Source: Ruditapes philippinarum (lineage: Eukaryota). From it: DNA of 64,000 nt. The stretch spans positions 1 through 64,000 of the forward strand of contig NW_026861766.1 in assembly GCF_026571515.1 (NCBI RefSeq), read 5' to 3'. A program made the position numbers and the translations under genes. How positions within the stretch are numbered: position 1 is the first letter of the stretch; every line of letters begins with the position of its first letter. Under the pieces are notes generated by a model. It searched no databases. It was not told the origin of the DNA and saw nothing but the letters and a program-made list of their open reading frames with translations. This document shows positions 1,391 to 58,196 of the stretch, piece after piece.

Positions 1391-3348
1391 AAATAAGATT
1401 ATTATTTTTTTGCCGATCGACGCACTGATTAAATTGCGCATGTAGTCTAACTACTTGTACTACACGTTTAGTTATTTTAATATTTTTCTAATGGGCAATG
1501 TCTACTACATTCCCACCAGAACAAAAAAAATATCTTCGGAATCTAACTGAGCATGGTAGATTAAAATCAAGTATTTTTTGTTAGCTTTATGTGTTGACCA
1601 CACACAATAAAGGTATTTGGCAAGAAATGAAATATTATTTCTATATTCATGGCTGAACAGCAAATGCTTGTATAAACTACAAGTTCACGCTCTGTTAACA
1701 TCTTAATAACTAGGCCCATAATACAACACAAAGTGTTCTCCGGATATGGAAAATCAAATAAAAATTGTGATTTCAGCAATTTTGAGATGTTCCCTCTTTG
1801 CCATCTTAACAGAAATTTTAAGATTGAGCACGCCGTTACAAAGGCTATGGTCCAGTTAACATTTGTGCCGACTTTGATGAATATTGAAGCATATTTTATA
1901 GTTTCATTTCAATTTGAACTTGTAACAGGAGGCTTTTCAGTGACAAATTGCTCATGCAGTAATGGGTTAAAAGTTTAATGCCTCCAGAGTCAAGATGAAC
2001 CAAAACTATTTAAGAAAAGATCTTTAGAAAAATGATGATTTTAAGAAAAGTGTAATATAGTGGCACTGACGGTTTATTTATTGTACATACTTTAATAAAC
2101 GTCCTTGATTTAAAGTTTCATTACTTTTGGTTGCGAACATAATTAGCTAATTGCACTTCATTATAATGTACATTTCTATAAAATAATGTATCATAAAATT
2201 TCAAACGTAAAATGCATATATGTTTCTGGCAGTGAAACAAGTTTAAGTTATGTGTCTACTATCGTCGATTTGATATCTAGATATTGAAGTACAGTTCGTC
2301 AAATCGGACGTTAAAATAAATGGCAACTGTTGAATGTAAACTATGTTACTTGTTCCGGCGAGTAACATGATTATTTCAAGTCTGAATATGCAAACGTTCA
2401 TACGATTGGTTTATAGGGCGTATCAAAAGTTTGTTAAACGAAATATCATTAGCTACTCCAATATGTCCGTTGGCCGTCAGAAGCACGTGCAAAAATGTTA
2501 CTAATCTGGTTGTTTTTAGTTCAGAGAGGAACCCTCTCAGTTCTCGTACAGTTCTTCTTTTATGTTTCTAGAAAATCTGTTTTGATTGTTTAGGACAAAG
2601 TTAAAATATAATTGAATAAAATGCACAATACGATCGAGTTTTTGTTTCTTAAGTTGATAACGTTACAAAAGTTAAATGATTCAAGATTCAAGCAATAATT
2701 TTTATGTTGATGGCGATTAATGACTGGCTTTGCAGATTTTTATTTTAATTCTATTGAGTGAATAACACAGCTAGGTCAATTTTGACCTCATTTTGATAAT
2801 TTACGTTGACAATAAGTTCTGTCTGCAATAAATAAGATACTTTCTTTGTTCACTTCACACTATTTTATTTTTCATGAACATTTTTAAAAAATTCATTAAA
2901 ATAAGCATAATGCTGCTTTAAGTTCAATGATAAGATTAAATATTCTGTATAAATGTATCTGTTTTGAATACTAGTATCAAAATGTGGACAAAAAAGCGAA
3001 AATTCAGCTGAATACTGAAAATAAAGTAATCCATTATTCAGATTTTACATGAAATGTTTTATATATGAATGAAGACATTATGTGCGAAAAATTTATATGA
3101 TTTCTATGCTCACTGCGAAAAGATATTAAATAGGGATATGCTGTAGAGAAGAGATAAATACAAACATCCAATCGTCATCACTAGTAATGATAAACCTTCA
3201 GGGTTGTTACCTTTTTTCGTCGACGCATATAACTTTTGTATAGTGTTCATTTGCGCATGCGTTCTCAAACAATTTAGCTATAAATGTTTGAGACAGCCTT
3301 CGTGCGCGTTTTCTACGTGTTCATCTGACCGAAGTTCTTTTATTCAAT

Positions 3349-3589
3349 ATGTTGGTTTTACTTCTGATAAGTTTCTTAGCAGTAACTCAGTGTCTCACTT
3401 CAGAAGTGGAATCTACATGCTCCCGGTACCATTATGAAGAACAACTTCTCGAGAAAATGATAAGAATGGAAATAAAAGTTGAAGACATTGAAAAACGTAT
3501 ATCTAAAACGAACCAAAATGTGATTGACGTTTTAGAGGACATGAAAACCGAAAGGACGAACATAAAAAACGATAACAAGGAATTAAAAG
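3349..3589 (+). CDS. C1q-domain-containing protein, exon 1 (signal peptide + coiled coil)
   Basis: ATG at 3349. Hydrophobic leader MLVLLLISFLAVTQC, then CSRYHYEEQLLEKMIRMEIKVEDIEKRI heptads like those of bivalve C1qDC proteins. Donor AAG|GTTTGG is phase 1 and matches the acceptor at 7449. Confidence 0.75.
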
Positions 3590-5232
3590 GTTTGGTCGTT
3601 TATATTATTATCGTTTTGTGTCGTTTCTCAAAGATAATTTTGCAATGAAGGTATTAAAACAATAACTCTGAACTAGTAAAGCAAAAATAAAAGTTTTTAC
3701 GTTTTGAATTCAAATTAGAACCTTTCCCTAATACAAATATTATAAGAAAAATTTAGTAACATAATTATTACTTTACGTTTTGATGTTGTGGGTATTTTTT
3801 TTTAATCAAAAATATTTTGTCCTAACTTACATTGTTTTTTTAAAAGAAAATTGGGTTTTTTAAAACCCGTATTAATCTATAAAGGTCCCGGGGTGCTTAA
3901 TTTCCTCGCTGTTTCCTAAAGTGATTTTTTATAAGGGTTTTTGGGTGGGACCCAAATTTTAAAAAAAAAAACCCAAATTTTCACAAATATTTAATATGTA
4001 TATACAAAAATGAGGGGTTGTCAAACACGGGGTTTTACTAAAATAATTTTAAATCTTACATAAAAATAAATCATTTTTAAAGCTATAAAATAAAAATTAC
4101 AAAATTAACTTAAAGGGATTTCAGGGGAAAATAATGGAAAAAAATAAAAAGATTTTGATGTCCAAATCAAAAATAATAAATAAATTTTCTTGAAATTTCA
4201 AACATGAAAAATTTTTTTTTTAAATTTTTAAATATTGGGTTTTAAGCGTAAATATATCTATATATGTTGAACAAAATTTAGAGGCCAATAGAATCACCAA
4301 ATAGTTTTTAAAACAAGTCAAGTGACTTGAAACAAACCCTTGAAGTTACAATTAACAGATATTGTGGATATTACATAATTGAAACAAGCCTAACGTCATT
4401 CATTTTGACATGTTCTTTAACGTTTCCAGAGTTCACTTTGACAACTATTGTGCAATGCTAGCGCTCTAATCTGACCCACGCGGTCAAACCACCATTTTAT
4501 TCTTTATATGGAGAAAAATTTTGTTTCCTTTGACTGTCTAATATAATTCATTTTGAGGGCATTTACAGAATGAATGAATGAAAAAATTTCAAAACTAAGA
4601 AATGAAAAATTTTGCCTGCGTCTCTCCTTTAATAATCATCATTATTTTAGTTCTATTATGATTTGACGGTAACATCGGTTACTCTAAATTCGAAGTATTA
4701 GTACCAGCTACTAACAATGAACAATCAGAATGTGCAAACTATAAGAATAGTTATAATATATGATTGATACTGATGAACATATTAAGATGAAAGGGTATTA
4801 TTTTATTAAAGGTTTTTTTTTTATATTTTTATTTTATTATTATTAATATTATTTGGTATGTCACGAAATTTTCTTAATTTAATTGCGATATCCTTACTCT
4901 GAACTTGTAAATTGACGCTGTCCCATATCCAAGTTACTAGTATTTATATTTTCTAAATAAAACTTTAATGCATATCTATATAAGCACATTATTGATGATT
5001 TTAAATTAACATTTGAAAAGCCATGATGATAAATTGTAATAATTTTAGCGTGTAAATATTAATTGTTATGTTTTTCCGAAGGAAAGCAATGATAAATATA
5101 GCAGTATAAGTTAAACAGGAGCCGAGTTACACCTTTTGCAGTTCTTTTTCGATTTATTCTTCTACTTCATGCTAACTATATTTTTCGTCACAACTATTTT
5201 TTTTTGTCTCTTCCCGTAGTATGTTTTGCATG

Positions 5233-6290: not shown

Positions 6291-7448
6291 AGCTGATGAT
6301 TACACATATTTCAGTATCTTTGTGATTACCATTTTTAACGCAATCACATACACATTGCTATTTGCTGTGATGTTACGAACAGAGGTATTATCTTTTTATA
6401 ATAACGCTAAATCTTGAAAATAGATCATCTAAATGATAGAAGATCGAGAAACCAGATCTTCCGCTTTTCTTATTCAAATATTAAGAATGGACCGACAGAT
6501 TACATGTATCGAGGGGTTTCCATATTATTGATGTATTTTATCGTTGTAATTTCATTTTCTACCTTTCTAAATATAATCATTTATTTAAATTAATAAAAGT
6601 TTTTAAATATCATAATTTGAGAGGAAATGTTCAGTGTCAAAGCCTGCCAAAGACAAAGAGGCAGAGTGCTTTAACTTCTATATGATCTCTTTTCTGAAGC
6701 TGATTTTTATGCAAGTGCTACTTGAATGGTAGCCAAGAACAATTTTATTTGAAATATATCAGGTATTTATAATAACCAAGTACAAAGTAGTCATATATAG
6801 GTCATATACCAATATACAAAGCTTAATGCTCAGCCTGCCAAGATCAACATAAAGATATTTTTTACATCTTATCTTTAAATAATAGCTTCTGGAAGGAGAT
6901 ATATAATATAAGAGATAAAGGTGTTTCGTATATTAAAGTCCTCTTTCATTCTAAGTTCAATTAAAACAATGAACCTATTTAGTATTTTATATTTGACAAT
7001 CTACTCATGGATTCCGGAGATTTTATATTAATTTTAATGCACTCGCCAACTTAGTTAGAAAAAGACTTTTGCCTACCTATTACTTAAAATTGGTCTACCT
7101 GTAGCTGCAAGTTTAAATTTAGCTGGTTAATGGGTTAACAGATCTTTAAAAACTGTTTGCAAATGTGTATGCTGATACGGAAAAACTTAAACGTTCTCAG
7201 AAGTATTCCTTCGTAACGATGAACAGAATAAAAGATTCTGTACATATAGTTATAACTTTGGTCAGTTAATGTAACTATCGCCAGCCCTAATATATTATCT
7301 ATCGACACTAGATTTCAATGACGATCACATACACATGCATGTACTGTGTTTTTTGTATATCATATGTTTTACAGCAGATAATGTTTTTTATTACTTCTAT
7401 TGATAGAAGATAAACATTATTTTTTCATAATTATTTCTTTCATTTCAG

Positions 7449-7876
7449 CTTTGCTGCTTACAGATACGATTGCATTTAAAGCACGTGGACCCACGGATTT
7501 AAGCCTTGCAACCGGACAGACCATTATCTTCGCAAAAAATATGTTAAATAAAGGTGAAGCATACAACAATAATACCGGAATATTTACGGCCCCAATGAGC
7601 GGAACTTACATATTTATGATTCATCTGTGTATTGCAAGCAAAAAATACATGAATTATGGTATAATGGTTGAAGATACTGTTTACACGTCTGGAACATTCT
7701 TTGATAATGACTCAATCACCTGTTATACTGCTGCCGCTCTAGTCGTCCTAAACGGCGGTGAAAGAGTTTACGTCAAATGTTTATTAGCTTCATCATCTGG
7801 TAACGTCCTTTATGAGTCCACCTCGTCAACTAATAACTTCTGGAACACGTTCTCTGGTTTGCTTGTTCACAGATAG
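7449..7876 (+). CDS. C1q-domain-containing protein, last exon (globular C1q domain)
   Basis: Acceptor TTTCTTTCATTTCAG|CT, phase 1 (an alternative in-frame acceptor lies at 7464). C1q motifs AFKA, IIF..N.GEAYNNNTGIFTAPMSGTYIF, LNGGERVYVK, NTFSGLLV. TAG at 7874-7876. Two-exon product is 222 aa; further exons could be hidden in the gap or noisy sequence. Confidence 0.92.
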
Positions 7877-8757: not shown

Positions 8758-10229
8758 TAATTAAAACGGCGGTTACTAAATTTATTTCAAAAGGTCGAAG
8801 TTGACAAATAATAAAGACATTTTATAAATAAGTATGTTTGATAATTGTTATCATTATATTTTTTCATAGTTTGTGACCCGATTAAGTATTAAGTATATTA
8901 TTATAACAAAACGATATTTTCGAACAATCGTTGAGTCAAATAGAAGATAATTTTTATCTAGAATCTTTTTCCATTGTTACTTTTAAAGCGCAAAAAACTA
9001 GTAAATTGAGAGTAAACCGGTTTGTGGTATCGGTGTTAAAAATATACAGAAAAATAGCAACCCAAGTTGTAACGATCTTACTGTCTATAAGTAAGAATTC
9101 CGCTTGTAAAATGATTGCTCGCTATTGGTACCCCTTAGAAACACAACGACATATTGGTTTGTTCTGAATGCTGTACTATGGCGTTGTACAGTAGCTAGCA
9201 TAATTGCAATTTCATTTAAAACCAGTTTAGATAAGTTGATTGATTTCACACTGCCTTCAGTTTGATAAACAGTCTTAACCTTCTTTTTATACTTTTAACA
9301 CAATTATTTCACAAATTCAAGAGGTCAACTAATTACATATCTCAAAATTTTAAATAACGATCTACTTTTTATGCATTTGTTTTCGGACCTAATCTATGAA
9401 TTTGAGAGGTCAAGACGCTTGAAATAGTCGGCAATACCAACGTCATCTAAGTGTACGCATTTAGGCTTGCACTTACGCAGAACGAAATAGTTCCGAGACT
9501 CTATCATGGCATTCATGTAAACGTAATAACCGATCAACTGTCAAGTGGACTAACCATTTTATTTTACTAATTTTAAAACCTTTAGTTAACAAACACTATT
9601 TATCTATAAATGTTTTTACCACGTCAGTTCTTATTAATGTTCAGTTAACAAATATTGAAACCGAGAACCACGTGCACTGTCACCCTGATAAAATGGTTAT
9701 ATGAAAAAGTACAAAAAAGGGAAAAAGAAAAAAAGAAAAGTGCAAATTGAAAAAATAAAAGAATTAAATGTAAGCACGAAAATATTATTGTAGCCTGTAT
9801 CATCAAGACGCTTGCAAGAGAAATCTCATACGCTTGGATAATACAGACAGGTGTCCTACTAATCGATTATCTCCGCCCCCGGTCTTTGACGGTCACCGAT
9901 CTCCAAAGTCTCTCTTCTAATGATCGATTATTGTCAACTGTATAGGTTTTTTGGTCAAACAATTTTGATAAATGAAATATCTTAATATTATTCAAACTCC
10001 CCTGCAGGAAACCATGTTTACCTGTACACTTACTATTAATGTGTACAAATGCGTGTGTCCCAGTCAGTTCGTTTCCATGCAAATACCAAACTTATATTTC
10101 TCACATATTTTGTCGGATCCATTTATATCTTTGAAGGTAGATTCAGACTTAATTGAGGCAACTTTTGCCAAGCTGAATGTAAATCAAGATTTTTTCATTT
10201 ACAATTTTTGTACTGCATTGATACAATGA

Positions 10230-13200
10230 GAACGTCCGGAGATGTAACAAGTCGGGAAAATCCGGCAATGTTGCCAGTTGTCAAAAATCCGGAGATGGGG
10301 AGAATCCGGTGATGTTACCAGCTGGGGAGAATCCGGAAATGTTACCAGTCGGGGTAAATCCGGTATTGTTATCAGTCGGGGGTAAATCCTGTGATGTTAC
10401 CAGTCGGGTAAATCCGGTATTGTTATCAGTCGGGGGTAAATCCTGTGATGTTACCAGTCGGGGAAAATCCGGAGATGTTACCAGCCGGGGAAAATCCGGT
10501 GATGTTACCAGTCGGGGTAAATCCGATGATGTTGGCAGTCGTGGAAACTCCAGTGATGTTACCAGTCGGGGAAAATCCGGAGAAGTCACCAGTCGGAAAA
10601 ATCCGTTGATGTTACCAGTCTGGGTAAATACAATGATGTTACCAGCCGGGGAAAATCTGGTGATGTTACCAGTCGGGGTAAATCCGATGATGTTACCAGA
10701 CGGGGAAAATTTGGTGATGTTACCAGTCGGGGTAAAATTTGGTGATGTTACCAGTCGGGGTAAATCCGATGATGTTACCAGACGGGGAAAATTTGGTGAT
10801 GTTACCAGACCGGGAAAATTCGGTGATGTTACCAGTCGGGGTAAATCCGGTGATGTTACCAGTCGGGGTAAATCCGGTGATGTTACCAGCCGGGGAAAAT
10901 CTGGTGATGTTACCAGTCGGGGGAAATCTGGTAATGTTACTAGTCGGGGTAAATCCGGTGATGTTACCAGTCGGGGTAAATCCGGTGATGTGAGCAGTCG
11001 GGGAAAATCTTTTGATGTTACTAGTCGGGGAAAATCTGGTGATGTTACCAGTTGGGGAAAATCCCGTGATGTTACCAGTCGGGAAAATCCGGTAATGTTA
11101 CCAGTCTGAGAAAATCAGGTTATGTTACCAGTCGGGATAAATCCGGAGATGTTACCAGCCGGGGAAATCCGGTGATGTTACCAGTCGGGGAAAATCGGTG
11201 ATGTTACTAGTCGGGGAAAATCTGGTGATGTTACTAGTCGGGGAAAATTTGCTGATGTTACCAGTCGGGGGAAATCTGGTGATGTTACCAGTCTGGGAAA
11301 TCTGGGGATGTTACCAGTCGGGGATTATTTGGTGATGTTACCAGTCGGGGTAAATCCGGAGATGTTACCAGTCGGGGAAAATCTGGTGATGTTACTAGTC
11401 GGGGAAATTTGCTGATGTTACCAGTCGGGGAAATCTGGTGATGTTATAAGTCGGGGTAAATCCGGAGATGTTACCAGTCGGGGAAATCTGGTGATGTTAC
11501 CAGTCGGGTAAATCCGGAGATGTTACCAGTCGGGGAAAATCTGGGGATGTTACTAGTCGGGAAAATCCAGTGATGTTACCAGTCGGGGAAAATCTGGTGA
11601 TGTTACCAGTCGGGGTAAATCCGGAGATGTTACCAGTCGGGGGAAATCTGGTGATGTTACCAGTCGGGGTAAATCCGGAAATGTTACCAGTCGGGGAAAA
11701 TTTGCTGATGTTACTTGTCGGGGAAAATCCAGTGATGTTACCATCGGGGAAAATCTGGTGATGTTACCAGTCGGGGAAAATTTGGTGATGTTACCAGTAG
11801 GGGAAAATCTGGTGATGTTACCAGTCGGGGAAAATCTGGTGATGTTACCAGTCGGGGAAAATCTTGTGATGTTACTAGTGGGGGTAAATCCAGTGATGTT
11901 ACAAGCCGGGTTAAAGCCGGAGATGTTACCAGTCGGGAAAATCTTGTGATGTTACTAGTGGGGGTAAATCCGGTGATGTTACCAGCCCGGGTAAATCCAG
12001 AGATGTTACCAGCCGGGGAAAATCTTTTGATGTTACTAGTGGGGGTAAATCCAGTGATGTTACCAGCCGGGTTAAATCCGGAGATGTTACCAGTCGGGGA
12101 AAATCTTTTGATGTTACCAGTCGGGGTAAATCCGGTGATGTTACCAGCCCGGATAAATCCGGAGATGTTACCAGTCGGGGAAAATCTTTTGATGTTACCA
12201 GTCGGGGAAAATCTGGTGATGTTACTAGTGACTAGTGGGGCTAAATCCGGTGATGTTACCAAGCCGGGGTAAATCCGGAGATGTTACAAGTCGGGGAAAA
12301 TCTTGTGATGTTACTAGCGGGGTAAATCCTGTGATGTTACCAGCCGGGGTAAATCCGGAGATATTACCAGTCGGGAAAATCTTGTGATGTTACTAGTGAG
12401 GGTAAATCCGGTGATGTTACCAGCCGTGGTAAATCCAGAGATGTTACCAGTCGGGGAAAATCTTGTGATGTTACTAGTGGGGGTAAATCCGGTGATGTTA
12501 CCAGCCGGGGTAAATCCAGAGATGTTACCAGTCGGGGAAAATCTTGTGATGTTACTAGTGGGGGTAAATCCGGTGATGTTACCAGCCGGGGTAAATCCAG
12601 AGATGTTACCAGTCGGGGAAAATCTTGTGATGTTACCAGTCGGGGAAAATCTGGTGATGTAACCAGTCGGGTAAATCCGGGGATGTTACTAGTCGGGGAA
12701 AATCCGGAGATGTTACCAGTCGGGGAAAATCTGGGGATGTTACCAGTCGGGGGAAATCTGGTAATGTTACTAGTCGTGGTAAATCTGGTGATGTTACTAG
12801 TCGGGTAAATCCGGTGATGTTATCAGTCGGGGGTAAATCCGGTGATGTTAACAGTCGGGGAAAATCTTGTGATGTTATCAGTCGGGCGAAATCTGGTAAT
12901 GTTACTAGTCGGGGTAAATCTGGTGATGTTACTAGTCGGGGTAAATCCGGTGATGTTACCCAGTCGGGGAAAATCTGGTGATGTTACTAGTCGGGGTCAA
13001 AATTGGTGATGTTACCAGTCGGGGTAAATCCGGAGATGTTACCAGTCGGGGAAAATCTGGTTGATGTTAACCAGTCGGGGAAAATCTGTGATGTTACTAG
13101 TCGGGGAAAATCTGGTGATGTTACCAGTCGGGGTAAATCCGGAAATGTTACCAGTCGGGGAAATCCGGAGATGTTACCAGTCGGGGTAAATCTGGTGATG

Positions 13201-13650
13201 TTACCAGTCGGGGAAAATCCGGTAATGTTTCCAGTCGGGGAAAATCCGGGATGTTACCAGTCGGGGAAAATCCGGTAATGTTACCAGTCGGGGAAAATCT
13301 GGTGATGTTACCAGTCGGGGAAAATCCGGTAATGTTACCAGTCGGGGAAAATCCGGTAATGTTACCAGTCGGGGAAAATCCGGTAATGTTACCAGTCGGG
13401 GAAAATCCGGTAATGTTACCAGTCGGGGAAAATCCGGGGATGTTACCAGTCGGGGAAAATCTGGTGATGTTATCAGTCGGGGAAAATCCGGTAATGTTAC
13501 CAGTCGGGGAAAATCCGGTAATGTTACCAGTCGGGGAAAATCCGGTAATGTTACCAGTCGGGGAAAATCTGGTGATGTTACCAGTCGGGGAAAATCTGGT
13601 GATGTTACCAGTCGGGGAAAATCTGGTGATGTTACTAGTCGGGGAAAAGT
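10230..13650. repeat. 27-bp GC-rich tandem array (~125 copies), consensus GATGTTACCAGTCGGGGAAAATCTGGT
   Basis: Period of 27 read directly. An 81-bp three-unit higher-order pattern spans about 11860-12630, and a homogeneous block about 13250-13560. Confidence 0.97.
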
Positions 13651-15856
13651 TTAGACATTGAGAAAGGACGTAGTTTACTTTTTAAAAGACTAAACTACTT
13701 GAATAAACAAAAGATTGCATATTCGCCTAGAATCTAGGTTTAGTAAAAAATATAGGCAAAAGAGAACAATCGTTGATCACAGAATCCTTCAAAATAGCCT
13801 ATTGCAAATATTTGTGATACGTTTGAAAAATTAGCGCACTTTTCACTCAGTTTATCTGTTTTATAACTTAAATGTTAATTATTTTAATGAATTACATGTC
13901 GCACACGTTTTGCCTGTCTTGCAAAATATATTTCCGCTGCGTTCGTAGCGCAAAATAATCTCCGTTGCGTATTTTAGTGATACCTCTTGGTAAGGGTTAA
14001 GGGAGAACTGCCTCTTATAGTAGGCATGGTTAAGGCTTTGTAACTTGTAATTAAATAATTCGTCAAGTTGTATTGACCATAATTGTCCTGGTCCCCCCCC
14101 CCCATCCCCGTTAACGAAGACTAAATGCTAGCATATTGAATTTGGCGACAATTTAAGGCGGAGACGAACTTCAACAGAGGCGGAGCAAATGAAGTGAGTG
14201 TACCCCTGACACGGAATATACCATATAGTGGATCTGCCAATACGTTTGTATAGGAAATATAAAAATAGGGTTACCGGGATTCGAACCTGCGACTGGTTGC
14301 CGCCATTAATTTTTCTAAGTGCAATAATCTCCGGGCTTTTGCGCGAGAAACCCAGAGTTAGGGTCACAAAGAATTGTTACCATGACACAGGATAAACTAT
14401 ATAGTGGACCCAGGAAATTAAAATTTCCATTGCCTGAAATTCGTATACAGTGGCTCTAAACTTTAAAAAGCCCCTGTTGTGTCTCTGGCATGGTGTTGAG
14501 AGTGAATCGACCCGCCAATGTGAGGGTGTGAGTTCTAACCCGCACTCCAGAGCATGCCCATTGATTGATTGATTGGCTCATTATGCTGGGGTTTACATTT
14601 TGTGACGGCATAGAAAGGAAAAGCGACACAAATATTACATTCAGATGCCTGTTCATTGGTTACTTTTTCTGGGGTTTCATATTGTGACAGCAGAGAACGT
14701 TTTTTTGTTTTTTTTGTTTGTTTGACTACGATACAAAAGAGAAAGAACAACGAAGCACTCGGCAATCTGATTTATACCCGGGAGCTACGCCCCTTTGTAC
14801 AAATAAGATAGCCTCGTGTTTCGAAGCTCTTTCTATTACTTATCTCCTCCACGGTATTACTTTGACAGTACTGATGTCTTTTTCAGAGGTAACGGAAAAT
14901 GGCCGCCCAGGGCGGGATCATCCTTAAGGTTAGTTCTACCTTCCTTAAACATTGACACCCGTCAGGCAATTTTACCCTATGGAAGGGAATTTTTCCGATC
15001 CGTTTTTATTTCTGATGCGCATTTACACAAATAACCCACGCATTTTTTGTTCCTCTCTCAAATCACAATGCAACTCAGCCATGTTAACAACCAGTTTACA
15101 AAACCACGTGCATTTAAATGACATGCTAAAATGTTATTGCACGTGCAAATCGTGCGAAAATAGACTGTGGGTTAAAAAAAAATCAATAATCTTTCTAACG
15201 GTATATTATCAATGTACTTTCATTTGCAAATCATGGTTAAATTGAGTTGTTGCCACTTATAAGAATATGTCCCGAGCAAATTAATGTATTTCTATTAGAA
15301 TACTTTGTTAATATGACTTTCTCCTATGTTAGGTATGTTTTCTTTTAGTACATGTGCACTTTTCATTATTTTGTACATGTATTATGTTGTTATCATGTCA
15401 TCATGGGTTTATAACCCTTATTAAAAGTATGAAATATATGTAATAAGATAAAATAATATTAATGAATAATGAAAAAATGTGTATCTGTTTTGTTTTGTTT
15501 TATTGTTTTTTTGTTATTTTTTTTGTTGTTTTGTTTTTCTAATATCTCTTAAATATTAATATATTGTACTACGGTACTCAGTAGCAAAAAAAAACAAAAA
15601 AACAACAACAAAAAAATCACCATGACAAATTTTATACATTTATCACATGCAAATTGATCTTAACTTTAATTGAATTAACCTGATGTAACTAGTAGCTATT
15701 TTTAGCAACTCGGCTTATATTATACATGTGCCTGTATAGCGTATCGGTTTTTCCGTATCTAAAAATAGTAACATATCGTTCAAATCATAGTCATATGAGA
15801 GGAGTTCATAAATAATGTATAAAATACTTAACTAATATACGGAAGTGTTGTCTTAA

Positions 15857-16042
15857 ATGGCGACTGAAAATATTGTTGATCGGATACAGGACTCGTTTTT
15901 GTCGTGTACGATATGTTTTCAGCCATATAATAAACCGAAGGCATTGCCGTGTCTTCATACGTTCTGTGAGGGCTGTTTGAGGGATTATGTGACGTCAAGA
16001 TTCGAGGATACAGGACAGTTTCCGTGTCCATTATGTCGCCAG
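15857..16042 (+). CDS. RING-NHL (TRIM2/3-like) protein, exon 1: C3HC4 RING finger
   Basis: AAATGGCG start. CTIC-x11-CLHTFCEGC-x16-CPLC RING resembling TRIM2/3 (PKALPCLHTFC). Donor CAG|GTTAGT, phase 0. Confidence 0.92.
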
Positions 16043-16592
16043 GTTAGTGGTGCAATTTTCAATTTCCTTCCTCGAATACCGCAGCAAATATTGTCATATA
16101 CACTTAAATGATACATATAAAATATGTGATGGTACTTTTAGTTACGCTTTTTTATTTAGTATATTTACCTTTCAATCTTTCAGTTTGAAAGTGATGTCAA
16201 GTTTATTAAAGATGTGTGTATTTATCCGACAATACATATGGAAATGAACTGATAATAAACATATTCGAAATTGTTGATATACATGTCTGTTATTATTTAA
16301 AATAATGATAACTTAAAATTGTTCTCCAATATCTGATAAAAAAATAAACACGCTGAATCGTTTATTCGTATTTGTCTGTCTTTAATTTCTCCATCCAATT
16401 AATGTGTTTAATTTATAAAAACAATGGTCATATATGTTGCTCAGCAATTACATTTAGTACTTCTAGTTTTAATAATATTAACAAATGTATCTGTATCATG
16501 AAAATTAGTCATCAAAATATTTAAGATTAATGAAGATAAAGTATGTTAATCTTGCTATTGTCAAATGTATTCGTATGTTTTGTATATTGTAG

Positions 16593-17654
16593 ACTATATT
16601 CGTACCCCATGGTGGAGTTTCATCCTTCCCTGACAACCATTTTATTGTTGGTCTCGGGGATACCGTAAGTACATATGATGTTCGTGGAAAGTTACAGCGC
16701 AATCACGAATCCACCCCATTGCTATCTGGCACAAAAACCGAACACTTTGCACCAGAGACGTCAAATAAGCTAATCCGAAGATTTGGTAACTATGGCACCC
16801 AGTCGCACGAGTTTATTCAAGTTACAGGAATAACTGTCTCACCCGTTACTGATGATATATTTTTATCTGATTCAGTCTTGAATAAAATTTCAACATTCTC
16901 ATCATCTGGGATATTTCGTGGTAGCTTTCAATGTGACTGTTCTGTGAGAGATATTGAAATAACACGTGGAGGAACAATACTTGCTTCTGTTAGTCGATCT
17001 GGAAACGCCATTCTACGTGAATATACCACGGACGGACGGATCCTCGCTTTTCATGGAACATTTTATAGTCAGGAAAATCCATTTGGTGTTGCACTGTCGA
17101 AGTCAAATTATGCAGTGATAACAGGACTACGTCAAAATTGTGTCCATGTGCTCACACAAAAGCGAAAACCTTCCGTAAGGTTTGGTTCCCGAGGTAAAGG
17201 CACGCACCATTTCACGTCACCGTATTATGTCACCGTCAACAACAAGGACGAAATTGTGGTGGCTGACACTGGTAACCACAGAGTTAAAGTCCATAAACTA
17301 GACGGTAGTTTTATTCATGCATTTGGAAAGCATGGGTCAAAGCAAGGAGAGCTGTTTTATCCGATGGGAATTTGTGTAGACAAATATGATAATATATACG
17401 TTGCCGATGCTAACAATTATCGTGTTCAAGCTTTTAGTCCGGATGGAGAATTTTTAGGGTACCCAGTTAAGGACACCTTCGAGTACGGCATGGACGTGAA
17501 GCCTGCGAATGTTAGGTTCAGTGAAGACAACGTCCTGCTGGTAGTACTTTCAGGCTCAAAGTTTTGTCAGATCCATACATACTTGTGGGATGTGGAAAAG
17601 CACAAACCTCGTCCGAAATCTAGTTATTTAGATTTATTTTTGTGTTGCAAGTAA
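16593..17654 (+). CDS. RING-NHL (TRIM2/3-like) protein, exon 2: linker + NHL beta-propeller
   Basis: Acceptor TATTGTAG|ACT, phase 0. Continues TIFVPHGGVSSFPDNHF (typical post-RING motif) into NHL repeats (FGSRGKGTHHFTSPYYVTV, VADTGNHRV, FGKHGSKQGELFYPMGICVD, VADANNYRVQ). TAA at 17652-17654. Total 415 aa. Confidence 0.93.
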   Translation, partial: TIFVPHGGVSSFPDNHFIVGLGDTVSTYDVRGKLQRNHESTPLLSGTKTEHFAPETSNKLIRRFGNYGTQSHEFIQVTGITVSPVTDDIFLSDSVLNKISTFSSSGIFRGSFQCDCSVRDIEITRGGTILASVSRSGNAILREYTTDGRILAFHGTFYSQENPFGVALSKSNYAVITGLRQNCVHVLTQKRKPSVRFGSRGKGTHHFTSPYYVTVNNKDEIVVADTGNHRVKVHKLDGSFIHAFGKHGSKQGELFYPMGICVDKYDNIYVADANNYRVQAFSPDGEFLGYPVKDTFEYGMDVKPANVRFSEDNVLLVVLSGSKFCQIHTYLWDVEKHKPRPKSSYLDLFLCCK

Positions 17655-21172: not shown

Positions 21173-21435
21173 CTGCATAAATAACAGAAATGAGACTCAA
21201 AATATATGATATGTATATACATATATCATGTTTTATATAACATATTTTTTGTTCGGCATTACCTTTTTCTTTTCTTAGGTTACTTTCTAATTTCATTGTT
21301 TTTATGATAATTATATGCAAATCAAAACAATTTTCCATTTTCCCAGTCTCTAATACTAGATATGTTTTCACATACTAATTTTTTGAAATACTTTGTAAAA
21401 CGATCAGCAATTTAAAAAAGAACACAAACACTTAC

Positions 21436-21868
21436 CTTTAAAATTCGAATACAACGTGAACTGTTTGTTTGTCCGTGTGTACTGAATATATTCCATAGCC
21501 CATCTCAACTGATCGTATTTTTGCCCAGCCGTCACGTGTCTTGATTTCTTAACTGGCAATCCTCGCATTTTTAGGGTATGTTCAGGTGACCAAGCAATGT
21601 ATTGCAGCCATTGTTTGTTGTTCGGTGAGAATCCCGATACACCAAACATGGAGTAAAGAAAGACCTTGTGTTGTATGGAAATGTTTAAACAACAAACACT
21701 ATCACTGTGTCGAATTTGTTTTCCTTGCAAGGCGAAGCCGCTAACGTCACTGCGTTCACCGTAGAGGGAATGAACAAGTTTAAGCCATGAAAAGAAGTAA
21801 GGAGACACTGTAAGATAGTCTTCAAGTATTACGGCTATTTCTTTTGTATTGTTATATGTCCGCCATGT
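21436..21868 (-). CDS. Glycosyltransferase-like gene, exon 2
   Basis: Acceptor CGTTGCAG|ACA, phase 0. Encodes TWRTYNNTKEIAVILEDYLTVSPYFFSWLK...GFALQ...FLYSMFGVSGFSP...FTLYSNFK. Donor G|GTAAGT, phase 1. Confidence 0.82.
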
Positions 21869-21924
21869 CTGCAACGATGAGAGAGTTAACCTTTACAAGA
21901 TCTTTAATGCATAACATTATATTT

Positions 21925-24782: not shown

Positions 24783-25273
24783 GTAAAACCATTGTCCTGT
24801 TTTACCCTCTTGCTGGTTGTTTATATGAATGTCACATGGTCCGTAGTCAAATACAAAATCTAACGCCATTTTTACGGTTTCTGCCGAGTATTCCCGATTG
24901 TGATCCTGTCTAGCCATATTTCTATGGCGACTTTATGTCTACCATACACGACTTTATTTAAAGACTTCAGTAAGCGTAACAATGACTTCGGTTTATCGTT
25001 TGCAACTATTATAATCCTTAGATCCAGATTTGTCCGGAGAAAGTTTCGTTCAACTGGTAAACACTGTCTTGGATTTTTTAATTTGTCATTGATTTCACTT
25101 TTTTTGCTGTCTGTTTGTTTGATTTGATGTTCAATTTCTATTTCTTGACTTGGAAATGTACGTGCATATACCAACATAGTTATTAAACAAAAACAGAAAA
25201 GAAAAAGTGTCCGAGGTAATCTTCGTGTAGCTTTCAAATTGTAAGTTAGTCGGGATACGCTTCGTCGGTGCAT
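24783..25273 (-). CDS. Glycosyltransferase-like type II membrane protein, first coding exon (1-nt frameshift near 24905; pseudogene or assembly error)
   Basis: ATG at 25273, directly after an acceptor-like TTTTACCAATAG. TM anchor LFLFCFCLITMLVYA. DLRIIIVANDKPKSLLRLLKSLNKVVY...EIWLDR continues in another frame as DHNREYSAETVKMALDFVFDYG...GKTGQWFY. Donor TAC|GTAAGT, phase 0. Confidence 0.78.
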
Positions 25274-31478: not shown

Positions 31479-32167
31479 ATGCGCTCTGGCGTTTACATCG
31501 TGAACGAGCCGCAGCCAGACGCAGAAAGTATTTCAAATTTTGATGAACCAAATCAGATCTTAGTAAATAATATGGAACAACCGGACGTACCGCAGCAACA
31601 GATTGAGGGCACGTCGATTGACCCCTTAGTGCCAGCGGAAGGAACTGAAGTTGATAACATTGGTGAAGAGCAAATAAGTGAAAATGAGATAAATGAACAG
31701 GAAGTAGGAGAACCTGTAGTGAAAGAAATGACTCCTGAAGGAGATGCCCCGTTAGCGGAGCAAGAACGTGACAGTGGTCTGCATGTTCCTCCACCATCAC
31801 CAAATAATTGTGAAAGTGAAGACGAAGCTAAAATTTTAATGCAAGATGGTGATGAGCCGGAATTAATGAAAATCGAGGATGTTCCTACCCCAGAAAAAGA
31901 GGACATTGTTTTTATCGAATCTGAACCTACTCCACTAGAGGAATCTACTCCGAAAAAGAAAAAAGATAAAAAGGAAAAGAAAACAAAAGAAAAGAAAGAG
32001 AAGAAAGAAAAAATACCAAAAGAACCCAAACCACCGAAGGAACCGAAACCTCCAAAGGAACCAAAACCACCGAAAGAACCGAAACCACAAAAGGAACCTA
32101 AGGCGCCTAAAGAACCGAAACAGCCCAGGAAGATTCACTTCAACTGGAATATTCAACCAATGTTCAA
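31479..32167 (+). CDS. otop: Otopetrin-family gene, first coding exon (acidic disordered region + Lys-rich and PKE/PKP repeats)
   Basis: Acceptor TTGTTTCAG| at 31449, ATG at 31479, 230-codon open frame. Donor AA|GTAAGT is phase 2 and joins the phase-2 acceptor at 51867 to give PMFK-SSLVKLL. Linkage across 19.7 kb is inferred from phase and strand only. Confidence 0.72.
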
Positions 32168-51866: not shown

Positions 51867-51987
51867 GTCGTCTCTTGTAAAGCTTCTTTGTGGGCTTTAT
51901 GCTCTGATAATTGTGGTGCTTGGGATTGTATTTGCTACGGCAAATTCACTGACGTCACAGGAAAGGGTACACAGATATTACCTCGAG
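51867..51987 (+). CDS. otop: Otopetrin-family gene, exon 2 (TM1)
   Basis: Acceptor TTCGTTCCAG|G. Encodes SSLVKLLCGLYALIIVVLGIVFATA...YYLE. Donor GAG|GTGAGT, phase 0. Confidence 0.88.
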
Positions 51988-53403
51988 GTGAGTATGCTGT
52001 GTTATTTACAAGATTTCTATGACATGCTACATGTATGTTACGTGACCCACTTTCCTTTTAATTACATAGATACTATTAGACCTTTACAAGCACTAGGACA
52101 CTTATTACATCTACACCCATGGTTAATTGCACATTCAAGCGTTCGAGGCATTATCATTAGAATATATAATAATTCTTGAGGGTCATGTCATGCAAGCCTC
52201 AAATACACAAATTGTGAGTCAACTAGTCCAAAGTGATACGTGAATAACGTCCAGCAGTGTCTGTTGCTCCTAAATTGATAAACATAATTACATATTTCAA
52301 ATTATTAAGACCTCGAAGCGCATGTTTTCATACAAATTAAAAAATTTCTGCAGTGGACTGACCTTCTACCAACAACTCTTATTTTTTTTCCAGATATATA
52401 CATGTATTTCATTTACTTTTCTTTCAGACAATATAAATACGAGTAGATTATAAATATTATACATTTTACGATAGTATTTCGTAGAAAAAATCTGCAAAAA
52501 TCACCATTCCGTCATAAAGAATGTTGATCTGAGTATGGCACCATGTTAAAACATCTGCATCATGCCAATTAAGCAATAAATGGTTGTAGCAACATGTGTG
52601 TGGGCAAAACATATTGACTGTTTTATTACAGTAGATACTGTTTTTTGTATATACTTAAATGATTATTTGTTTAGACAATCCGGAATGTATGCTGTATTAT
52701 CATTCCAGGATAAATATCGTTATCTCATGTTTACCGTATAATTATTACAGAATAAAAGTATTATTGTCGTTTTGAATTTTACACAGTGTAGTCATTTTGC
52801 CGTATACAATTTAATTAGCTATATTTGATTGGGAAATTGAAAACCTTCACTTTAAAAAAAAAACAAAAAAAAAACTCAAATCGTAGTATTTGTTTTAAAT
52901 TAAAGTTTGAGCAAAATATCTTCTGAACGAACTTTGTAAGGATGTTCAACCGAGATGTAAATACAAAAAAAAACTTCGTAACCGAAATTACATAAAATAC
53001 TATTGTGGGTGTATGATATGAAATAACATGAGTAATCATATGATTCTTTTAAATTGATTAATAGTTATTACAGTAATGTTATCATTATTGTTTTTATGTT
53101 GTTGTTTTCTTTTTTTATTTATGCTATAAATACACTTTTTAACACTTATGATATTGATGCACTTTTTAACATTTAAAATTTCTATATCGCACAGCACTGC
53201 AGCAATTTATATATAGAAATCATCGTTCTAACCTTGAGTAATTCGTTCACGACCTTGATTATGTGTTTGCAAAAGTGACTCGCTACTAATTATCGTACTT
53301 TTACCTGGAAATATATATTCCAGATAGAGTTATTCATTTCATATGTCTCATGAATTATGGCAAGCAGGCAGCTCATGTCGATGTTATACTTATTATATTA
53401 CAG

Positions 53404-53579
53404 GTGTTCCTTGTATACCTGTATACTGGCTCACTTCTTGTACTGCTGTACTTCCAAGTGGTTCTCCTACGCGGGGTCAAGGTCAAAAACAGCTACTTTG
53501 AAACCAATGTAATTAAAGTGTCGATACGGCCAGATGGAAGCATACAGAAATCTCCAACAGCTACACCTACCCCACACAG
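53404..53579 (+). CDS. otop: Otopetrin-family gene, exon 3 (TM2)
   Basis: Acceptor TTACAG|GTG. Encodes VFLVYLYTGSLLVLLYFQ. Donor AG|GTAACA, phase 2. Confidence 0.88.
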
Positions 53580-53780
53580 GTAACAGTCTTACAGAACGCT
53601 AGATATATTTATACGATTAGAGATTGCCCGTTTTACATAGGACAAGTTCAAGCCGTCAAACTTTAAATGATCTCCAAGAGTTTCTTATAGAATATTTGTG
53701 TAAGTAATAAGTATTTGTGAAGATATCTATTTTATCTGATTTAATACAGGAAAACTGTTTAGGTTTATAAAAACTTATCA

Positions 53781-54029
53781 TGTTTTAATTGGGTTTTACG
53801 TCGCCCCAAGATAGAATAGGTCATATGGCGACTTTCTAGGTTTACTGTTGGAGGAAGATCTTCGGCTACCTCCGTGCAATATTTCAGACAATAACGGGCA
53901 CTTAAGTAGACCCACCGACGTTCAAGCTGTATAGCTTCCTTTCATGAAGGAATCCAAAGTCCCAGTCGGGAGGGGTTAGGGGCAATTAGTTTGACGTCAA
54001 CGACCTTAACCACTCGGGCACGGACGCTC
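53781..54029 (-). mobile_element. tRNA-derived SINE (Meta-like core), copy 3
   Basis: Homologous to 8501-8757 (ATAGGTCATATGGCGACTTTC...GGAGGAAGA...GTCAACGACCTTAACCACTC). Confidence 0.82.
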
Positions 54030-54101
54030 TTGAAACTCTTTGTTAAATACTTACACCTCGTTTGAGAGAGATTTCATTGCAAATAGTATTGCGTTTTCCA
54101 G

Positions 54102-54262
54102 GGCACACGAGATCATTGCTGATGATGCTTTACTGGAAAATGGGCGTGGTGCTGAAGAGATATCATTGGCTAGTCGCCACAGTCAGCTGGTCCTTCCGAT
54201 CGATGGTGGAGTGGCTCACGTTGGAGAGGGAATCAACTTTTACTTAAGACTTGGAGCTTTAG
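54102..54262 (+). CDS. otop: Otopetrin-family gene, exon 4
   Basis: Acceptor TTTCCAG|G. Ends HVGEGINFYLRLGAL (otopetrin FYLRxGA motif). Donor G|GTATTG, phase 1. Confidence 0.9.
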
Positions 54263-54451
54263 GTATTGTTGTTGGAAATAAGCATGAATGAAAATTGGAA
54301 TTACATGCAAATAATATATGAAATATTAAACATTTACTCATATTCTAATTATATAACGATCTACAAAATATATACAATATACCGTTTTTTGTGTTTCATG
54401 TAGCGGTACCAATGCATCTTTTTAGTTTTTTCCCAATTTGTTGTGTTTCAG

Positions 54452-54612
54452 CGTTTGCGTTTGGAAGTGTGACGTTGGATGGTCTGCATATTGCGTCATA
54501 TTTTGAGACACCTGATCAAAAGTCATGTGACAGTAACATCTTCATTTTGGTCTATGTCATGCACTTGCTTTTCACTTTCGTGCAGACGTATTTCCTCTTC
54601 AAAAATCATAAG
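54452..54612 (+). CDS. otop: Otopetrin-family gene, exon 5 (TM3-4)
   Basis: Acceptor TTTCAG|CG. Encodes AFAFGSVTLDG...HLLFTFVQTYFLFKNHK. Donor AAG|GTAATT, phase 0. Confidence 0.92.
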
Positions 54613-55429
54613 GTAATTCAACATTTCCGTTAAAAAATAACATTATTATTCTTTTCTTCTGCAAAGGCGTTAGCAAAGACCATAAAAAAGTTTGACTTGA
54701 TGATGCATTTAAGTTGGTTTTGAAGTTATACTTGCACTGGAATGGTATTATTATGATTTTCTAAATTATGTTAACTCAGTTTAGGAAACACAAGGTTACA
54801 CATAGACAGGAGCACAAAAACTTTCCATGAACTAGCTGCATATCGTAATTAAATAAAATGTATGACAGTCTCTAATTTAGAGAGTGATTTTTTTAATTCG
54901 ATACTATAGGCAAGCGATTTCATGTCTCCGGCCTCAGGTATTCGACATTCATAGTACACTTTTATTGATGTACTTTTGCAGTTATGTTTGAATTTTCATG
55001 TCGATATATGAAGAAACTATCAGAAATAATGAAGTAAACGAAACACTCGAAGTCTGTTCTAGATTTGTAAATGTTTGTTTGTCTGACGAAATAGTCTTGA
55101 GGTTCAGAATAAGGAATGTAGTATACAATAGAACAATTAAACCTATATACTTTATACATTGTATCACTATTTAAAGTAATTGTCCGTGTAACAAAAGTAA
55201 ACTGTTTACTTTAATTTTTAGTGCTTCTGTTTAGATTTCCACACGAAATCTTGAATATTTATTTACTTTACGGAATATTTGTTTGTACGCCTGCTTTTAC
55301 GTATCAGTGGAAACATTCGCTTGGTGATATGAATTGAATGCCTGTCTTAAGATATCGTAGGTTGGAAGAAAAATATTTGATTTGGGTAGAAACAAATTAT
55401 TGTACAAGAGGAAACACTTCTAAAAGGCC

Positions 55430-56090
55430 AATTATGCCCCGTAATGCTTCTATTTTTATTTCTCAAAAATATTGTTTGTGGTATTCTTTCATACAACTGT
55501 AGTTTCCAAAACGTTGCTCATTGGCCTATAAAATACCTGAACTGTCCTTTTCTTCTGTTGCTTTTTTTGCAATAAGTACATAATTAATACATAGTGAATT
55601 GGTTTGTGTGAAAATCAAAATACTACTTTCTGTAGATTTTGCTACTTTAATGACAAATTATTCACATTAAGCGCTACTTTCTTCAGGTAACAAGCATTTA
55701 ACATGCCATGGGACCATTATATGACCTTTAATAAATTTCCAATGTTCAACTTTTGTCGAGCATAAATCAAAACGTATTTGATATTTGATCTTTAGTCATG
55801 AATTTAACAGAAGAGTTGATCAGCATTCGAAGTTGTGCACCTTTGGTTTTGCATGTGGACTCATTCAGTTTTGTTAGAATTAATGCCCTTGACTTAGTAA
55901 AACTTTGCAATTTTCAACTTGTGTCACACGTAGCCCAAAAGATGTTTGACCTAGAGTCATGAAACTTTGACCTTCTTTAAAGAAGAAAATATTATTTTGT
56001 TTCTGGGGCATATTATGCCTTTAATAAATAATCATTTCACATTTTAAAGCTTTTACTGGGAAGCAAAGTCTAGCTTTATAATAGCCGAGC
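55430..56090. mobile_element. Degenerate Helentron-associated/pearl-like non-autonomous element (tentative)
   Basis: TTATGCCCC start. Internal partial repeats (TAGTCATGAATTT / GAGTCATGAAACTT, TTCAACTT, AATGCCCTTGAC) resemble the core units of these bivalve elements. Confidence 0.35.
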
Positions 56091-56159
56091 AGAAATTTAA
56101 CTTTTATGTTCTTATCAAATATTGTGCCCTACGTAATGATTTATTTGTTTTTATTTAAG

Positions 56160-56301
56160 TTGGTCATTGACAAATGGAAGGCAATGGTTAGATTTGGAAT
56201 GATGCATCTCATGGCGACAAACTTGTGTGTCCTACTGGTTACCGCCATCACGGAAACTGCCGAAGATTACCGACAACAGGATTATATTCAGAAAAATTTA
56301 A
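56160..56301 (+). CDS. otop: Otopetrin-family gene, exon 6 (TM5)
   Basis: Acceptor TTTAAG|TTG. Contains RFGMMHLMATNLC, a strong otopetrin signature. Donor A|GTATGT, phase 1. Confidence 0.92.
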
Positions 56302-56356
56302 GTATGTTAAAACCTACGAGAAGTATGAACGATGGCCTTGAACTTGTATCTGAATG

Positions 56357-56560
56357 CATCTGCGGGTGTTTCTAAATTAAAAATTTTACCATTTCATGTT
56401 TAAATAATGAATTTTGCTTAAGCCGGTGCTAGGGGCGTGGACGGTAGTTTGCACTTGACAGTATCGTCCATGAAGGGGCTCAATCCAACCGAGCTTGTAA
56501 CATTTACAATTTTGCCGTTTTGGGCTTTATTTAGGGATTCATATTTTTTCTCTATGTATC
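56357..56560 (+). repeat. Old dispersed repeat family (GCTTAAGCCGGTGCTAGGGGCGTGG core)
   Basis: Aligns with 43150-43330 and with the reverse complement of 62440-62630. Confidence 0.75.
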
Positions 56561-56859
56561 TTTATAGTGTTGTTCGAATTAGTTTTATAAAGTTCCACGA
56601 TGTCATACTTCAACTTCATAAATGTATGTAGTCAAACGATACATTTATAAGAAAATTGTTTAGTAGTATTACTAGACTTCTAAAATGTAGAATCCTAAGT
56701 AATGTGACAAAATATCAAACATATTTAAATTTAGATTAACACAGAAAAAACCTGCAGCCGTTCATATAAAACATTGTCACTTACTTGAGTACATTGCTTA
56801 AGAGTTATGATCATGAATATTCCAAACACTATTTATGATACCAGTACATGTTTTTTCAG

Positions 56860-57057
56860 CTTCTGTGGGAATGAAGTTGAAGAGCTGTTACGAGGATATC
56901 ACACTTGCACGATCGGCATCGCCCTACCTATTTCCGTGCACGATTATATACAGTATCATTGCGGCTGGTATCATCTATAGGTTATATCAGTATGTTGGGG
57001 TCAAGGTCAAACAGAGATGGCCTAGTCATACCTCATTGACAAGTTCAGTTCCACAGG
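56860..57057 (+). CDS. otop: Otopetrin-family gene, exon 7 (TM6)
   Basis: Acceptor TTTTTTCAG|CT. Encodes ASPYLFPCTIIYSIIAAGIIY. Donor G|GTAAGA, phase 1. Confidence 0.92.
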
Positions 57058-57495
57058 GTAAGAAATGCAATACTTACTGCTACATATTTTATTCGCCAAT
57101 ATTTCAATTCACAAACATTTGAATACTATCTTTTAGTGTATATAAATCTAGTAAATATAAAAGATAATAAAAGACAAAAAGTAAAACTTTCTTCTATTTT
57201 TGTATTGTCGGTGAGAGTGTTATCTTGAGGTTTATCTTGCCAGCGTCAATTATATAAAATATCAGGACGCCCAGCAGACATGGAGATAGTTTTTTGCTCT
57301 AGTTCGTAGACCCATGTAATTGAGTTTATAAATATTAAGTCTCGGCTGTCCAATTTATGAGCTTTTCAAAAGCAAGGTGGTTAGAAATGTAAACAAAAAG
57401 ATACTCATCTTGAAAATATAACGTTTTTATCAATGGGAGGATGCGTTTGCTTCTTTGAGTAATGCCTTAACGATTTGTCTTTATTTACGTTGTAG

Positions 57496-58196
57496 GTGCT
57501 ACAGGGATCGATTGCGACAAGGCAAACAAGGGTTTGTTCATGGGACTTCTAGTTGCTGTGCTGACCCTTATTGCCATTGCAACATTCTTCGTGTTTGAGA
57601 ATCGAATTTCTGATTCATCCACCGCTATCAAGGTTTTCTACGTCACAGAACTTGCTCTTATGGTCGTCACGGGCGTTGGGATAGTCTTGGGATACAAGCG
57701 TTTGGCTACACTGAAGTTCTTGCCTACGTACTTCCTGTCAGTTGATTCGGTCTTACTCATCGTGGCGCTTGCAGGGTCATACATTTATTTGTTCTTCATA
57801 CTCATTTCTGTACTTTCAAGTGAAGAGCTCATGGAAGTTGTAGGTGTTTTATCCGTGGTCACAATCGTTTTGGCGCTCATTCAAATCACGTTGCAGATCG
57901 TATTCATCTTAGATGGACTTTGTCGTTGCGCGGAGAATGATGTTCAAATGAGTGATAAGCCCGGTCGCTCTGTGGTCACATTCTTGTTGGTCTGTAATCT
58001 AGCTATGTGGGTGGTGAGCATGTTTGAAATTAAGAAAACACAAGTTCTACCAATGCATGAAACTTTCTACGGAATATTGGCGTGGAACATCATCACGCAT
58101 CTGTGTGTACCGCTCTTGATATTTTTCCGTTTTCACTCTGCCATCTGCCTCTCAAAGATCTGGTACAACGCTTATCAGAAAGAAAAACAAACCTGA
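57496..58196 (+). CDS. otop: Otopetrin-family gene, last exon (TM7-12)
   Basis: Acceptor TTGTAG|GT. Encodes IDCDKANKGLFMG, KPGRSVVTFLLVCNLAMW, FYGILAWNII..LCVPLLIFFRFHSAICL. TGA at 58194-58196. The eight exons sum to 2349 nt (782 aa + stop). Confidence 0.95.

Follow-up and report, generated by a model that had tools for sequence, protein, structure and literature searches.

Otopetrins are dimeric proteins whose activity is governed by sliding between the subunits, and in Caenorhabditis elegans OTOP8 (CeOTOP8), which is inhibited by its own N-terminus, a glutamate of transmembrane helix (TM) 6, Glu325, and a histidine, His567, are called absolutely conserved; the Glu is proposed to take up a proton outside, become buried and pass the proton to the His (PMC11343839). 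E267 and H574 are described as conserved across all otopetrins and necessary (PMC12549899), and mutants of these residues lose function with assembly and traffic intact (PMC9348849). The Glu is located in a hydrophobic interface, and in XtOTOP3 the Glu321Gln mutation abolishes the current completely while Asp is tolerated; mutants of the barrel triads lose current too, with Gln585 and Asn623 rather than Tyr666 being the most sensitive C-triad residues (PMC6483595). Three proton routes have been left open and the gating versus conducting role is unsettled (10.1101/542308, PMC9348849), with separate pores suggested for different pH ranges (PMC9348849). Here we analyze an otopetrin gene of the clam Ruditapes philippinarum, located in the first 64,000 nucleotides (forward strand) of contig NW_026861766.1 (assembly GCF_026571515.1), a stretch referred to as the window, in which the TM6 Glu is replaced by isoleucine.

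A comparison of the clam protein with the solved channels shows both likenesses and differences. No solved structure matches the sequence better than CeOTOP8 (8ug4/8ug5; E 2e-26 with the last exon of the clam gene, 3e-43 with its close relative P0002), which is also the best fold match of a P0002 model. Equivalents of CeOTOP8 His567, Asp439 and the TM12 Pro are kept in the clam protein, but Glu325 has become Ile and FYR has become FFR. The twelve-helix, two-barrel fold, as seen in the P0002 model, is common to the clam protein and vertebrate OTOP1-3 (zebrafish Otop1, chicken and Xenopus OTOP3, mouse OTOP2), and relative to these proteins the Q/N/Y residues of the N-triad, the Q/N residues of the C-triad, the FYR Arg, the TM5 Glu, the TM11 Trp and the TM9 Asp are kept. 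The clam protein differs from them in its hydrophobic residue at the E267/E321/E250 site, a Phe in place of the C-triad Tyr, and a long acidic N-terminal tail. The pairing of the TM6 Glu with the TM12 His and its role in proton current, stated in an initial annotation made from the DNA letters, agree with the published work (PMC11343839, PMC6483595). Judged by its sequence, the clam gene is an otopetrin family member without the Glu that defines a canonical Glu/His proton channel, and its protein is likely no longer to pass protons by the known route.

The gene model and the TM6 codon

The otopetrin gene is intact, with an open frame and AG/GT exon ends, and its eight exons encode 782 amino acids on the plus strand. 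Seven exons at 51867-58196 have AG/GT ends and a single open frame. The first coding exon was located by tblastn with relatives and its in-frame joint yields the 782 amino acids, the joint to exon 2 across a 19.7-kb intron being based on tblastn and a frame-keeping GT donor phase. The exons and key codons are:

31479..32167, plus strand: exon 1, acidic, Pro/Lys-rich N-terminal tail of about 230 amino acids (tblastn of P0001-P0004, P0006 and P0010; GT donor phase)
51867..51987, plus strand: exon 2, TM1 (AG/GT ends, open frame; tblastn)
53404..53579, plus strand: exon 3, TM2 and loop (AG/GT ends, open frame; tblastn)
54102..54262, plus strand: exon 4, TM2-3 loop and start of TM3 (AG/GT ends, open frame; tblastn)
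54452..54612, plus strand: exon 5, TM3-TM4, N-triad Gln427 kept (open frame, alignment)
56160..56301, plus strand: exon 6, TM5, N-triad Asn457 and Glu468 kept, Trp replaced by Leu461 at 56232-56234 (open frame, alignment)
56860..57057, plus strand: exon 7, TM6 with YLFPCTIIYSII (open frame; spliced contigs)
56946..56948, plus strand: ATA codon of Ile513 at the proton-carrying Glu site (CeOTOP8 E325, zfOtop1 E267, XtOTOP3 E321)
57496..58196, plus strand: exon 8, C-barrel TM7-TM12 and stop, with Asp633, Gln679, Gln683, Asn717, Trp721, Arg761 and His763 kept (Pfam Otopetrin, E 1.3e-59)
58125..58127, plus strand: Phe760 in place of the FYR tyrosine, a common variant (alignment)
58134..58136, plus strand: His763, the TM12 proton acceptor, kept in 29/29 members of the clade described below (alignment)

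The last exon scores 202.7 bits against a cut-off of 27.8 for Pfam PF03189, further exons match too, and the C-terminal FYR box is present as FFRFHS. In a hydropathy scan of the clam protein 11 segments exceeded the threshold and TM3 fell below it. The last exon is 89% identical to that of Dreissena. The N-terminal tail is likely cytosolic and disordered, and a Pfam scan matched no family to it; at 31940-32130 of the window exon 1 contains a Lys-rich stretch with KEPKPP repeats, and Dreissena carries a similar stretch.

The TM6 codons read ATT ATA TAC at 56943-56951 (motif YLFPCTIIYSII), and ATA is two base changes from any Glu codon, as the initial annotation had stated. Its placement of the motifs at TM6, at TM12 (IFFRFHS, 58119-58139) and at TM5 (TNLCVLLV, 56217-56240) is also correct, as is its description of the frame and splice sites as intact, given the open frame, AG/GT ends and spliced contigs. 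The span it assigned to them, 56860..58196, does hold TM6 and TM12, but TM5 lies outside it in a separate exon. Contigs from four runs of four studies were compared; they are probably transcripts, an origin that their spliced joints fit. Those of runs X2, X4 and X7, from three of these studies, cover the TM6 exon from end to end and show no deviating letter at 56943-56951; all three carry ATA, and none has the GAA or GAG that by the initial annotation would have refuted its reading. The GT..AG splice at 57057/57496 is seen in all four runs, in which 58125-58127 is likewise unchanged, and the 3' end of exon 6 was found as the loose end of the spliced contigs at 56860. Coding differences across the four runs number nine, eight of them synonymous and one a Val to Ile change. 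Raw RNA reads (X22-X24) and a DNA run (X5) gave mean exon depths of mostly 0-2 and were dominated by intronic repeats. High-copy repeats lie in the otopetrin introns at 53700-54030, 55550-55970 and 56350-56560 of the window and are very deep in DNA and RNA runs.

The TM6 exon alone gave no matches among solved structures, and the register was instead read through P0002, which shares the TM6 motif; the second Ile of the motif aligns with CeOTOP8 E325 (8ug4) and with the glutamate of the zebrafish Otop1 IEY. The P0002 model was built from a 118-row alignment (mean predicted local distance difference test score 75.7, predicted template modeling score 0.74), and all 12 of its Foldseek matches at E<=0.001 are otopetrins, with target-normalized template modeling scores of 0.74-0.86. 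As modeled on this close relative, the otopetrin fold appears to be kept, and by likeness to the solved dimers the clam protein is likely a dimer at the plasma membrane.

A molluscan clade without the TM6 Glu

A search with the last exon gave 50 matches, 27 of which belong to a group we call clade A. The TM6 residue of these proteins is Ile in 22, Met in four and Leu in one, against Glu in 16, Gln in four and a gap in three of the remaining 23 matches. Six of the clade A matches are unnamed. In the full clade A set of 29 proteins the site is Ile in 24, Met in four and Leu in one, and because the TM6 Glu is replaced by these residues the relay is predicted to lack its first step. Members come from Dreissena, Potamilus, Pecten, Pinctada, Mytilus, Haliotis, Patella, Lottia, Gigantopelta, Aplysia, Biomphalaria, Elysia, Pomacea, Nucella and Octopus, among others, and cluster look-ups gave the same TM6 state in Ostrea, Magallana, Crassostrea, Sinanodonta, Babylonia, Argonauta and Sepia. 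The collected relatives included no clade A protein from a chiton. Dreissena polymorpha has two clade A copies on different long contigs, both with Ile (P0405, P0406).

In a tree of 47 rows, a chosen subset of the collected proteins, clade A has a Shimodaira-Hasegawa-like approximate likelihood ratio (SH-aLRT) support of 100 and contains cephalopod, gastropod and bivalve branches. The 29 rows also form one clade in a 176-row FastTree from which fragments and near-copies outside molluscs had been dropped. The initial annotation had raised the possibility that loss of the Glu defines a conserved clade, and alignment and tree bear this out. The three classes diverged in approximately the Cambrian. 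A wider branch around clade A takes in nemertean, brachiopod, annelid and flatworm proteins, with Gln forms (Lingula, Dimorphilus) and Glu forms (Lineus, flatworms, another Lingula gene) whose order at the base the tree leaves open, and Gln is a possible intermediate before the hydrophobic state. Clade A bears the same automatic database name, proton channel OtopLc-like, as the OtopLc-like invertebrate proteins, but its branch is separate, and arthropod OtopLc-like proteins and molluscan clade C mostly keep IEY. A literature search found no paper describing clade A, with subscription journals and supplementary alignments largely outside its reach.

Clade A is well conserved. Identity within the clade exceeds that of the paralogs of a second clade, clade B, in nine of nine species pairs (67.4 versus 58.0% for Pecten and Octopus). 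Residues Q427, N457, E468, P509, Y514, P755, R761 and H763 are invariant in the 29 members, position 633 is acidic (Asp or Glu) in all of them, and Q683, N717 and W721 are retained in 28; the C-triad Tyr is Phe in 25. The initial annotation had set the gene in a probably calcifying animal where proton handling matters; clade A is conserved just as well in Octopus, Elysia, Plakobranchus and Aplysia, molluscs in which the adult shell is absent or reduced. Sequence comparison indicates purifying selection on clade A, since its identity exceeds that of clade B in all nine pairs, eight of nine coding differences in the clam are synonymous, and the His, the Arg and the N-triad are kept in 29/29. The clade A gene is real, old and under selection, in keeping with the proposal of the initial annotation that it is a maintained paralog.

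A profile search of 1.84 billion representatives returned 4695 proteins at E<=0.001; the following counts refer to the best 150, which are mostly protostome-like, and ten of the 27 rows of the search profile came from clade A. At the TM6 site 121 of these proteins have Glu, 19 Gln, seven Ile, Leu, Met or Val and three a gap. At the FYR Tyr site there are 98 with Tyr, 38 with Phe and 14 with another residue, and Phe is found in 29 of the 123 Glu-bearing rows. Glu to Gln change is recurrent and hydrophobic replacement is rare. Of the three substitutions listed in the initial annotation only the loss of Glu is rare. The FYR Tyr to Phe change, which that annotation had treated as a special feature, is a common variant and was ruled out as a marker, and the TM5 Trp to Leu change was ruled out as limited to the bivalve branch, where all 11 of the 29 clade A members with Leu or Val at this site are found. 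By parsimony on the 176-row tree the hydrophobic state requires three changes, and Glu versus non-Glu at least 14.

Several other otopetrins depart from the Glu/His pair. The annelid Owenia fusiformis (P0186) provides a third hydrophobic replacement of the TM6 Glu, in this case by Val. An insect clade (P0043-P0050, P0204, P0228, P0229, P0238 and P0265) keeps the TM6 Glu and has Gln in place of the TM12 His (FRFQ), the mirror image of the loss in the clam. Gln at the TM6 site occurs in P0280, P0286 and P0299 (Limulus, Argiope, Ornithodoros), in P0038 and P0040-P0042, and also in P0220 and P0252 (limpets), P0200 (tardigrade) and P0212 and P0363 (Lingula), and Gln forms that are also without the His are found in Lingula (P0212), Potamilus (P0066), Patella (P0220) and Lottia (P0252). 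Mytilus clade C proteins P0157, P0329 and P0340 read FYFFHS, with Phe for the Arg and the TM6 Glu kept where present.

Column-by-column inspection of the 29 clade A rows found no acid in TM6 in any member and no clade-specific acid in TM3, TM11 or TM12. Asp392 was rejected as a compensating acid; it is invariant in clade A, yet is also found in Glu-bearing relatives and zebrafish Otop1. Glu727 was rejected as common to 75 of 123 Glu-bearing rows. Thr390, present in 24 of the 29 members where other proteins have Ile or Val, is a polar gain.

Queries run against the clam genome were the Pfam family, a set of three otopetrins and two patterns. The assembly consists of 15,874 contigs and is of uncertain completeness, only the best candidates were scored, and failure of a word-based search to find a gene says little about its absence. 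These searches found only two otopetrins, the clade A gene and one in clade B (contig C6959:71100-73740, minus strand), and no Glu-bearing otopetrin. The second gene reads YLYPCSILYSII in TM6, with Leu (TTG) at the Glu site, and retains FYRFHS and the TM5 Trp; its last exon is 94% identical to that of Mercenaria, which together with the Dreissena match of the first gene places the animal among the heterodont clams. Clade B keeps Glu in pteriomorph bivalves, gastropods and chitons and has Gln in Potamilus and Octopus, and its heterodont branch has Leu, Ile or Met in six of six members (Mercenaria, Mactra, Mya, Dreissena and two unnamed), which have further changes in common. A single origin of all hydrophobic states was rejected by the approximately unbiased (AU) test (p 1.66e-58), and the loss in clade B is independent of that in clade A. 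Both paralogs were seen without Glu in Dreissena, Potamilus and Octopus. With a scallop clade C query, the Glu-bearing clade C proteins among the best 120 of 189 matches belonged to pteriomorphs and gastropods; heterodonts and cephalopods, as far as named, were represented in those 120 by their clade B proteins only. Candidates for a third otopetrin in the clam were rejected: the Glu-motif pattern gave two matches against five in a control, the FYR pattern gave seven, two of which are the known genes, and the remaining seven pattern loci had a best profile score of 10 bits and matched frames mostly with nearby stops.

Possible roles of the Glu-less protein

Our preferred explanation, held with moderate confidence, is that the Glu/His relay is broken, that the protein carries little or no acid-evoked proton current, and that it is kept for another job. 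Ile513 would break the Glu-to-His relay between the two barrels and would probably seal the outer half of the inter-barrel interface, where the buried Glu of solved channels is surrounded by hydrophobic residues. The other job may then make use of the barrels, which are retained, and of the cytosolic site formed by His763 and Asp633, and is most likely a pH-sensitive non-proton conductance or a pH sensor. By analogy, the loss of one key acidic residue changes what is conducted in CLC-K channels. The same holds for Hv1 selectivity-filter mutants (cited in PMC13579931). The folds of both are unrelated to that of otopetrins, from which no such switch is known. A non-proton current is possible within the family, since human OTOP3 permeates anions (PMC13579931). 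Proton movement in molluscs may run through expanded Hv channels, of which they have 4 to 11 genes (PMC10377628).

Several points weigh against this explanation. The relay partner His763 is kept in all 29 members, which would be needless for a dead relay. In the clam's own genome and in Dreissena, Potamilus and Octopus every otopetrin seen is Glu-less, and the tree requires 14 or more Glu/non-Glu changes; this would also fit invertebrate channels in which protons flow without need of the Glu. The mutagenesis was done on vertebrate channels. XtOTOP3 without its Glu carried no current at all and no new conductance (PMC6483595), and the published work allows proton passage through the N or C barrel. 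No functional data on any Glu-less otopetrin were found in the literature search, and passages of PMC2268672, PMC13000164, PMC9909269 and PMC9939839 do not treat the function of Glu-less or molluscan otopetrins.

The first alternative is that the protein is still a proton channel that works without the Glu, using the N barrel, the C barrel or a water wire that reaches His763, and perhaps limited to alkaline or seawater pH or to a lower flux. We consider this possible, though only tentatively. All other permeation residues are kept, several molluscs apparently own Glu-less otopetrins only, and the three proposed routes and the current loss of barrel-triad mutants (10.1101/542308, PMC6483595) would give such a channel a path, as would pores separated by pH range (PMC9348849). 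Sea urchin Otop2l, an otopetrin of a marine calcifier that sets a precedent for involvement in the pH control of shells or skeletons, is alkali-activated; unlike the clam gene, it is a demonstrated proton channel (PMC13000164). Set against this are the abolished current of XtOTOP3 with Gln for Glu (PMC6483595), a structural model in which the Glu is the obligatory carrier (PMC11343839), and the lack of a compensating acid in the columns of TM3, TM6, TM11 and TM12.

It is improbable that the protein is a non-conducting partner subunit, dimerizing with a conducting otopetrin to tune its gating or traffic, as the initial annotation had suggested. Dimers controlled by inter-subunit sliding (PMC11343839) would allow such a role, and pteriomorph bivalves and gastropods have Glu-bearing clade B or C paralogs that could be partners. 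The idea is weakened because the searches of the clam genome found no Glu-bearing partner, the second gene having Leu, and clade A is highly conserved even where the paralog was seen without Glu. An error of sequencing or assembly, an edited RNA site or a decaying duplicate deserves practically no weight, as no supporting point was found beyond the thin raw RNA coverage of the exons, the same ATA codon in spliced contigs of three studies excludes error or editing, the hydrophobic state is found in 27 of 27 clade A last-exon matches, and the frame is open with intact splice sites and mostly synonymous variation. The probability left over from these readings goes to roles outside the list.

Neighboring features and significance

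Beyond the otopetrin gene, the window contains a long, GC-richer tandem repeat array at 10222-13680, both strands of which have open frames encoding short peptides in repeated copies. By Pfam, RING finger and NHL-repeat exons of a TRIM-NHL-like gene lie at 15857-16108 and 16593-17651 on the plus strand, and a C1q-domain gene lies at 7382-7873, also on the plus strand; the latter likely includes the upstream frame 3292-3645, which resembles a signal and coiled-coil exon. Two minus-strand stretches, 21407-21892 and 24875-25273, are presumably glycosyltransferase-like exons, an assumption based on their motifs, and a Pfam scan of these frames gave no match at E<=0.01.

In conclusion, the route of protons through otopetrins is still disputed among three paths, and the latest model leans on an "absolutely conserved" Glu that clade A does not have. 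New here is that the only other otopetrin found in the clam genome is Glu-less too, by an independent loss. It is conceivable, although we think it rather unlikely, that in heterodont and unionid clams and in coleoid cephalopods all otopetrins have become Glu-less by repeated steps from Glu to Gln to a hydrophobic residue, giving a second functional class that is either a channel for another ion (e.g., an anion such as chloride or bicarbonate) or a proton channel incompatible with the relay model. Clade A, together with the Glu, Gln and Leu/Met orthologs of clade B, forms a natural series for testing the Glu-relay model: if clade A carries current, a Glu-independent path is shown, and if it carries none, a non-proton function in the otopetrin family is revealed. 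In the latter case, many molluscan genes labeled proton channel OtopLc-like would be misdescribed, and this annotation bears on work tying OtopLc-like genes to shell formation and ocean acidification.
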